Shown one piece after another: positions 4,290 through 4,749 of a stretch of 54,525 nucleotides of DNA. How positions within the stretch are numbered: position 1 is the stretch's first letter; every line of letters starts with the position of its first letter. Made by a program: the position numbers and the translations under genes. Where the stretch lies: UHGV virus genome UHGV-0179380; one strand, 5' to 3'. Under the pieces are notes generated by a model, which searched no databases, was not told the DNA's origin, and saw nothing but the letters and a program-made list of their open reading frames with translations. This stretch comes from a virus.

Positions 4290-4328
4290 CGCAATGACTC
4301 CATTATGTTAATTAACGGAATAATTCTA

Positions 4329-4371
4329 CCATTTTGTGATCTGTGTTACATTTTTGACGCATACAAAATGT
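4329..4371. promoter_or_regulatory. divergent intergenic control region: CCATTTTGT and ACAAAATGT copies flanking a CRP-like dyad TGTGAtctgtgTTACA
   Basis: motif copies at 4329-4337 and 4363-4371; TGTGA-N6-TTACA at 4335-4350. Confidence 0.3.
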
Positions 4372-4466
4372 ATTTGTTGATTTATGTCAATATACGAAAT
4401 GTGGTTTTATCGGATATTTAAGCCACCGGATGAACCGGATGAGCTAACAAGAACGAGGATTAAAAA

Positions 4467-4715
4467 ATGAAAAACATGTTCAAAGTGGTTTTATTCTCTG
4501 CGGCTGTTGCTCTTACTGGTTGCGCTGTTGACAAAGAAGCTGCATTGCACAACCTGCCAAATAGCGGAGTAATCCCACAAGAAATTGTCTATGATGCTAA
4601 TGGTCATCTTGTCTATGACACTGAAAAACTGCCATATACTGGACAATGGTGTCATGAACTCGATCACAATATGCGCCGCATCGGTAGCCCGTCGAACTGT
4701 GTAGCTAATTACTGA
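4467..4715 (+). CDS. small lipoprotein (moron)
   Basis: 82 aa; signal peptide with lipobox LTGC; opposite strand to flanking tail genes; own terminator. Confidence 0.65.
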   Translation: MKNMFKVVLFSAAVALTGCAVDKEAALHNLPNSGVIPQEIVYDANGHLVYDTEKLPYTGQWCHELDHNMRRIGSPSNCVANY

Positions 4716-4718
4716 AAG

Positions 4719-4749
4719 AAAACCCCGCGCGAAGCGGGGTTATTTTTAT
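4719..4749. terminator. bidirectional rho-independent terminator
   Basis: aaccccgcgcgaagcggggtt hairpin with T-runs on both strands; serves lipoprotein gene (+) and J gene (-). Confidence 0.7.

Follow-up and report, generated by a model that had tools for sequence, protein, structure and literature searches.

The mEpimmI phages are Nus-dependent, non-lambdoid temperate coliphages (Front Microbiol 2025, PMC11893012), and the members with a type II integrase integrate at the 3′ end of abgT (PMC11893012). Lpp010, a lipoprotein of the mEpimmI phage mEp010, when cloned under Ptac excludes mEp010, mEp044, mEp554 and, unexpectedly, lambda, all of which are LamB-dependent (PMC11893012), while mEp013 is not excluded (PMC11893012). 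The mode of action of two further phage lipoproteins has been described: Llp of phage T5 is periplasmic, binds FhuA and folds two of its surface loops inward by "reverse allostery" (PMC9586334), and Rtp45 of phage Rtp binds the periplasmic interface of the plug-less receptor LptDE and displaces extracellular loops 4 and 5 (PMC12685063). Here, an 82-amino-acid (aa) lipoprotein gene (4467..4715, plus strand) was analysed in the virus genome UHGV-0179380, a stretch of 54,525 nucleotides (nt) that is referred to in full as the window; the gene lies between the gene for the central tail fibre / tip attachment protein J and a lateral tail-fibre gene. Its product is very probably the cognate LamB-directed superinfection-exclusion lipoprotein of an mEpimmI temperate phage located at abgT, and as such is already known, being the type-C Lpp of the mEpimmI phages published in 2025.

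Searches with tblastn against phage genomes returned 44 records that match the lipoprotein. Identity was 96% for MagusPhagus, 92.7% over 82/82 aa for mEp010, mEp044 and mEp554, and 91.5% for mEp013, and homologues of 51-58% identity were present in the virulent Seuratvirus and Nonagvirus phages (Bas21-24, CAjan, Seurat, 9g and slur01) as well as in the Dhillonvirus phages EP23, PNS1, HH3 and Maverick. By these comparisons the window gene is identified as the orthologue of Lpp010 (gp116), the type-C Lpp of mEp010. The two precursors differ by six substitutions, two of which lie in the signal peptide (M4V and S11A) and four in the mature part (E39D, I40V, A44G and N45S); the latter four are conservative and fall within the sole variable stretch, residues 39-45. 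In the family alignment the lipid-modified Cys and the motifs PNSGV.P, D-TEKLP.TGQW-C and RR.GSPSNC...Y are invariant or nearly so, as are C19, C62 and C78, and all family-invariant residues are kept in the window allele. C62 and C78 probably form a disulfide in the mature lipoprotein.

The open reading frame (ORF) is intact over its 82 codons in the ORF list, carries a GAGGA ribosome-binding site read directly from the sequence (4455..4459, plus strand, 7 nt 5′ of the ATG) and ends with a stop codon at 4713-4715; its designation as a type-C Lpp lipoprotein precursor draws on the ORF list, on a PHROG match and on orthology. The N-terminus reads MKNMFKVVLFSAAVALTG followed by CAVDK..., with a short, basic n-region (K2, K6), then a hydrophobic core and the lipobox L16-T17-G18-C19 (4512-4523), which fits the pattern [LVI][ASTVI][GAS]C and has Ala at position +2. 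Residues 1-18 (4467-4520, plus strand) would form the lipoprotein signal peptide, the codon at 4521-4523 is that of the predicted lipid-modified Cys19, and the mature lipoprotein of ~63 aa is encoded by positions 4521-4712. The signal peptide, of the signal peptidase II type, and the lipobox were judged by reading of the sequence. According to the Lol sorting rule, lipoproteins with Asp at +2 are retained in the inner membrane; by this rule the Ala at +2 predicts that the protein is destined for the outer membrane, and Asp occupies this position in no family member. Across 18 distinct orthologous coding sequences, codon positions 1, 2 and 3 hold 10, 3 and 47 variable columns, respectively, a skew that indicates a genuine gene under purifying selection.

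The first-pass annotation of this DNA, made from the sequence by itself, had described an 82-aa lipoprotein with lipobox LTGC, encoded on the strand opposite to all flanking tail genes and provided with a bidirectional terminator. The lipoprotein and its lipobox are as described, and the present analysis agrees with the other two observations: J and the lateral fibre gene, which ends in a Peptidase_S74 domain, are both on the minus strand, and an intrinsic terminator serving the lipoprotein gene (plus strand) and J (minus strand) was scored on both strands at 4721..4741 in a terminator scan. This hairpin is G+C-rich with T-runs on both strands, its stem is nearly invariant among unique sequences from 22 type-C loci, and it is annotated in the mEp010, mEp044 and mEp013 records.

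The lipoprotein matches PHROG 12984 ("lipoprotein") with E = 6e-27. No Pfam family, including Bor and Lom (Ail_Lom), was matched at E ≤ 0.1, NCBIfam and PADLOC scans gave nothing meaningful, and a profile search against PDB sequences returned no match. The family is small, with 27 clusters at 90% identity among 5.8 billion proteins; a hidden Markov model search of 1.84 billion representatives yielded three real 50%-identity clusters only, and no lipoprotein homologue was found in a scan of GTDB species-representative genomes. A fourth hit of the hidden Markov model search, the 4467-aa metagenomic CshA/SdrD-repeat adhesin P0030, was judged spurious; it gave nine weak repeat matches to profile residues 34-62 (E = 2e-5). 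AlphaFold2 models were poor, with predicted local distance difference test (pLDDT) scores of 67 for the full precursor and 62 for the mature part, and a Foldseek search of PDB with the low-confidence model found no match and was uninformative.

The link to LamB comes from the company that the gene keeps. Of 39 loci that represent the mEpimmI phages and prophages, Queuovirinae and Dhillonvirus, three groups unrelated to one another, 37 have the lipoprotein gene convergent to the J stop codon with a gap of ~30-40 nt. The window locus has the same layout: the gene runs towards the 3′ end of J, precedes the fibre gene and lies beside a LamB-type J tip. The window J protein (1521 aa, 4746..9311, minus strand) was assigned by five Pfam domains (FNIII-A_GpJ, Phage-tail_3, Ig_J, Ig_J_second and Phage_Tail_Tip), and its putative distal receptor-binding tip, the last 140 aa (4749..5168, minus strand), by similarity to the tips of Bas21, Bas23 and Bas24. 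S5 Table of the BASEL collection lists LamB as the terminal receptor of each of the four BASEL phages with a homologue, namely Bas21 GottfriedDienst, Bas22 KurtStettler, Bas23 WildeMaa and Bas24 SeppeHuegi, and phages Bas14, Bas20 and Bas25 (LptD) and Bas15 (FhuA) were absent among the 40 of the 44 tblastn hit records that were listed.

Over the last 140 aa of J, the window shares 45-46% identity with Bas21, Bas23 and Bas24 and 41% with EP23. Two classes of tip accompany the lipoprotein: one comprises the window, MagusPhagus, strain 2-331, EP23, Bas21, Bas23 and Bas24 (41-96% identity to the window), the other Bas22, mEp010, mEp044 and mEp013 (27-31% identity to the window). Phages shown by experiment to be LamB-dependent occur in both classes, and the lambda J tip is unrelated to the window tip. 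A 2026 preprint independently links LamB with the distal domains of GpJ in these phages, and reports that these domains have little or no homology to the lambda tip. Since a single lipoprotein family is found with two divergent tips, and since Lpp010 stops lambda as well, the simplest reading is that the lipoprotein targets the shared receptor rather than a particular phage protein. Phage exclusion had been on an earlier list of possible phenotypes for this gene, and exclusion by the orthologue Lpp010 (PMC11893012) gives substance to that entry; the partnership with LamB and the J tip had been missed. As a separate observation, lipoprotein residues 39-45 partly follow the tip class, reading QEIVYDA[ND]G in one and QDVVYDG[SE]G in the other.

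The slot after J is exchangeable among sister mEpimmI prophages. In UMNK88 it is filled by cor and two small genes after J (cor region, locus L012, 5250-5489); M15 has the same cor arrangement, disrupted by IS903B on the fibre side of the slot (locus L010, 5072-5455); and in FAH the slot holds an unrelated 81-aa exported protein (locus L011, 5248-5493). The AT-rich intergenic region of the window, delimited by alignments and a composition profile, extends from the fibre start codon to the lipoprotein start codon (4290..4466), and alignments of the sister cassettes show homology from the fibre start codon to ~4393, where it breaks. G+C content is 35-41% in the lipoprotein gene and the 3′ end of J versus 45-52% across most of J. 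The break of the shared block at ~4393, together with the lower G+C of the J 3′ end and the lipoprotein gene, argues that J tip and exclusion gene move together, and the mobile unit is the J tip with its matching exclusion gene, across temperate and virulent groups. Cassette exchange of this kind has been proposed for small siphoviruses by the BASEL authors. With regard to the features of a moron, the locus has its own terminator, a lower G+C content and replacement in sister prophages, while scans found no promoter.

In the proposed mechanism, the precursor would be exported, lipidated at Cys19 and cleaved by signal peptidase II, after which the Lol system would deliver the lipoprotein to the inner leaflet of the outer membrane, as suggested by the Ala at +2. 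The mature protein of ~63 residues, probably bridged between Cys62 and Cys78, would then inactivate the maltoporin LamB as a phage receptor; by analogy with Llp and Rtp45, it may bind the periplasmic rim of LamB and change the surface loops that are used by the tips. Phages requiring LamB, including the prophage's own kin and lambda, would fail on the lysogen, and released progeny may also escape loss on cell debris. The benefit would differ with lifestyle: a temperate phage would gain protection of its lysogen, and the progeny of a virulent phage would not be lost on debris or infected cells. As a mobile cassette of two parts, the lipoprotein gene and the LamB-binding distal domain of J would pass between temperate mEpimmI phages and virulent phages of Seuratvirus, Nonagvirus and Dhillonvirus.

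Several points weigh against this explanation. Exclusion was shown for Lpp010 and not for the window allele, using over-expression from Ptac and spot assays (PMC11893012), and as these assays had neither an adsorption nor a LamB-binding readout, the statement that the protein acts on LamB is inferred. The window J tip also belongs to a class other than that of the phages tested against Lpp010. mEp013 needs LamB and yet escapes Lpp010 (PMC11893012), which indicates that exclusion is not simply loss of LamB; this escape is easier to reconcile with a LamB surface that is partly remodelled than with a porin that is removed or fully occluded. The mechanism of Llp cannot be transferred directly to LamB, because LamB has no plug domain, and the poor models (above) gave no fold relation to Llp or Rtp45. 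Finally, no convincing plus-strand promoter was found, so that expression in the lysogen is presumed.

At first pass the locus had been read as a typical lysogenic-conversion architecture that may alter the host surface. In the corresponding alternative, the gene would be a moron under cAMP-CRP control that affects surface properties such as serum resistance or adhesion, as lambda Bor or Lom does. That the lipoprotein gene is an autonomous, AT-richer unit with its own terminator agrees with this proposal, as does the TGTGA-N6-TTACA element noted at first pass, which is present at 4335-4350 as the CRP-like palindrome TGTGATCTGTGTTACA, one mismatch from TGTGA-N6-TCACA and 130 nt 5′ of the lipoprotein ATG. 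By our own count the site matches 15/22 positions of the extended consensus, and the 54.5-kb window contains seven sites with at most one mismatch from TGTGA-N6-TCACA versus 1.29 expected from shuffles, none of which reached seven; the other CRP-like sites are located at 11256, 12850, 26678, 37952, 46388 and 48889. A weak TATTTG hexamer (4372-4377) is the only hexamer with class II spacing to the CRP-like site and, in our reading of the sequence, would suit a class II promoter with the site centred at -41.5. The comparison of the 22 type-C loci points the other way: TGTGA is invariant, but the second half-site is TTACA in only 8/22 and TTGCA, with two mismatches from the consensus, in 14/22, the TTGCA variant being present in the tested phages mEp010 and mEp044. 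The first half-site of the FAH cassette is TGTAA, and the proportion of variable columns in the site (25%) is no better than that in the flanking intergenic blocks (22-30%). CRP control of the lipoprotein gene, as suggested at first pass, is therefore unlikely. The lamB gene itself depends on CRP and MalT, so that, if the CRP site were functional, the exclusion factor would be titrated to its receptor LamB. A fuller version, in which the site is functional, the blocker is made in response to the cAMP-CRP signal by which LamB, of the mal regulon, is induced, and a plug-less trimeric porin is silenced from the periplasm in a mode unlike that of Llp on FhuA, possibly at a cost to maltodextrin uptake, is unlikely. 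A conversion moron would also have to accommodate the lack of Bor, Lom or Pfam similarity, the phage exclusion demonstrated for a 93%-identical orthologue, and the occurrence of homologues at this position in phages that are strictly virulent and form no lysogens; lysogeny is therefore not defining for the family. What stands of the conversion architecture is the autonomous, AT-richer unit, whereas its gene is a member of an exclusion family, and a CRP-driven moron altering the host surface is very unlikely.

Exclusion might instead act after adsorption: the DNA of phages entering through LamB would be kept from crossing the periplasm or the inner membrane, with LamB itself unaltered. Both options were left open in the mEpimmI paper, in which adsorption was not measured (PMC11893012), and the LamB-dependent mEp013 is spared, as would suit a block of this kind; in addition, no complex of LamB with the lipoprotein is known. 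The sorting signal, with Ala and never Asp at +2 in the family, would however place the protein beside LamB and not in the inner membrane, and the gene is strictly co-inherited with two divergent LamB-type J tips and not with tape-measure or ejection proteins. As the unrelated phages lambda and mEp010 are both excluded, and the structurally solved analogues Llp and Rtp45 act on the receptor, a post-adsorption block is improbable. A small, cysteine-conserving outer-membrane lipoprotein encoded beside tail genes could also be an accessory, either of lysis, as an o-spanin-type lipoprotein, or of virion assembly, as a factor for the tail fibre, but the lysis cassette (endolysin and Rz-like spanin, 28995-30025) lies 24 kb away, the gene is on the strand opposite to the late operon, no PHROG spanin family was matched, and an exported lipoprotein would be unable to chaperone assembly of fibres in the cytoplasm. 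Such an accessory role is extremely improbable. The explanation preferred over these alternatives is superinfection exclusion directed at LamB.

The promoter of the lipoprotein gene was sought in the intergenic region. A consensus sigma-70 scan found no plus-strand promoter, and the leading candidates of a looser scan either lay on the minus strand or depended on TGTTACATT, which is destroyed by the TTGCA variants. TTGACG (4355-4360) was considered as a -35 hexamer and rejected, as it reads TCTGCT in mEp010 and mEp044. The homologues in virulent phages have plain sigma-70 promoters and no CRP-like site (TTGACT-N16-TATATT in Bas22, TTGCAT...TAATAC in EP23). By match to the consensus, the best promoter-like element of the intergenic region is the extended -10-like element TGGTAGAAT (4331..4323, minus strand), which lies 27 nt 5′ of the fibre ATG (4289) and is kept in 20/22 loci; its -35 zone is overlain by the CRP-like site. 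This element could serve as a promoter of its own for the fibre gene, which lies beyond the strong J terminator.

The two motif copies reported at first pass are most likely either the repeat pair ATACAAAATGT / ATACGAAATGT (4361-4371 and 4392-4402) or two copies of ACCGGATGA in tandem (4425..4442, plus strand). The ACCGGATGA tandem probably has no function, because its copy number varies from 0 to 2 among orthologous loci. An Rfam scan of 4200-4800 gave sub-threshold terminator-like matches only. A 38-codon ORF in the same region (4305-4421, plus strand) was considered as a gene and judged probably non-coding, with 9, 7 and 8 variable columns at codon positions 1, 2 and 3, respectively; its start codon is lost in 4/22 loci and it is frameshifted in 3/22. 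This ORF is annotated as hypothetical in mEp010, mEp044, mEp013 and MagusPhagus, and is fused to cor in the M15 RefSeq record.

The window is essentially one prophage of the mEpimmI type inserted at the 3′ end of abgT. Its first letters lie within abgT (1..1446), the 3′ end of which has been replaced by the prophage, so that the reading frame is cut short and has a new stop; in RefSeq the equivalent abgT is a pseudogene in strains 09-00049 and UMNK88, which have the same insertion arrangement. Prophages of this kind, that of strain 09-00049 for one, were included among the genomes analysed in the mEpimmI study (PMC11893012). Over 87% of 25 kb, the non-tail half of the window and mEp010 share 87-88% identity; this half further matches mEp044, mEp554, mEp515, mEp013, mEp021 and MagusPhagus. 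The lateral tail-fibre gene (1596..4289, minus strand) encodes 897 aa with a C-terminal Peptidase_S74 intramolecular chaperone (E = 3.6e-14). Other genes of the prophage include those for an Rz-like spanin (28995-29483), an endolysin (29453-30025), a CI-like repressor (45715-46362) and, at the prophage end, an integrase (53431-54477). The window J protein is 94% identical to that of MagusPhagus. Imperfect repeats of ~35 aa (...IDKAIADE..ARTEAISGVNASISTL...) form a long run in J, at residues ~870-1200 (window 5700-6700), and J ranges from 1442 to 1828 aa in close relatives, for which the repeat region is apparently responsible; repeats of variable length are also mentioned in the mEpimmI paper (PMC11893012).

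The finding mainly corrects annotation, in that a protein recorded as "hypothetical protein" in RefSeq and most phage records would become a LamB-directed superinfection-exclusion lipoprotein. Together, the lipoprotein gene and the J tip predict LamB as the receptor of the prophage, and resistance of its lysogens to lambda-like and Seuratvirus phages; such prediction is relevant to phage typing and to the design of phage cocktails. The questions of interest are how a lipoprotein of ~6 kDa disables a plug-less porin, on what basis mEp013 escapes, and which promoter is used.

Among known systems, the one nearest to the window gene is Lpp010 of mEp010, with which it shares the length of 82 aa, the lipobox, the position between J and the fibre gene, the opposite strand and the terminator. 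The two phages belong to the same group and, as integrase II phages, use the same abgT site; they differ in the neighbouring J tip, which is of the mEp010/Bas22 type in mEp010 and of the Bas21/EP23 type in the window, both types being LamB-associated. Cor of phages phi80, N15, HK022 and T1 is likewise a small lipoprotein that excludes phages using the receptor of its carrier, and it fills the identical slot in the sister mEpimmI prophages UMNK88 and M15. It differs in being directed at FhuA and in being accompanied by two extra small genes after J; the window lipoprotein had no match to NCBIfam Cor at E ≤ 1, and hhalign against UMNK88 Cor aligned the signal peptide only, with 9% probability. 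T5 Llp resembles the window protein as a lipoprotein precursor of ~80 aa with conserved cysteines, and it is expressed from its own promoter, encoded beside the receptor-binding protein gene, and inactivates the phage's own outer-membrane receptor from the periplasmic side. Its target FhuA is a TonB-dependent transporter with a plug domain, whereas LamB has none, and hhalign against Llp aligned 21 signal-peptide columns only, without further sequence or profile similarity. Rtp45 is a lipoprotein of ~6 kDa encoded beside the J/receptor-binding locus of the small siphovirus Rtp; its receptor is LptD, and a separate receptor-binding protein is co-encoded in place of a tip borne on J. The hhalign match to Rtp45 was weak (68% probability over 63 columns, with low per-column confidence). 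The window lipoprotein is thus a functional analogue, and not a demonstrable homologue, of Llp, Cor and Rtp45, and by analogy Rtp45 would be the best mechanistic model for a lipoprotein that blocks LamB.

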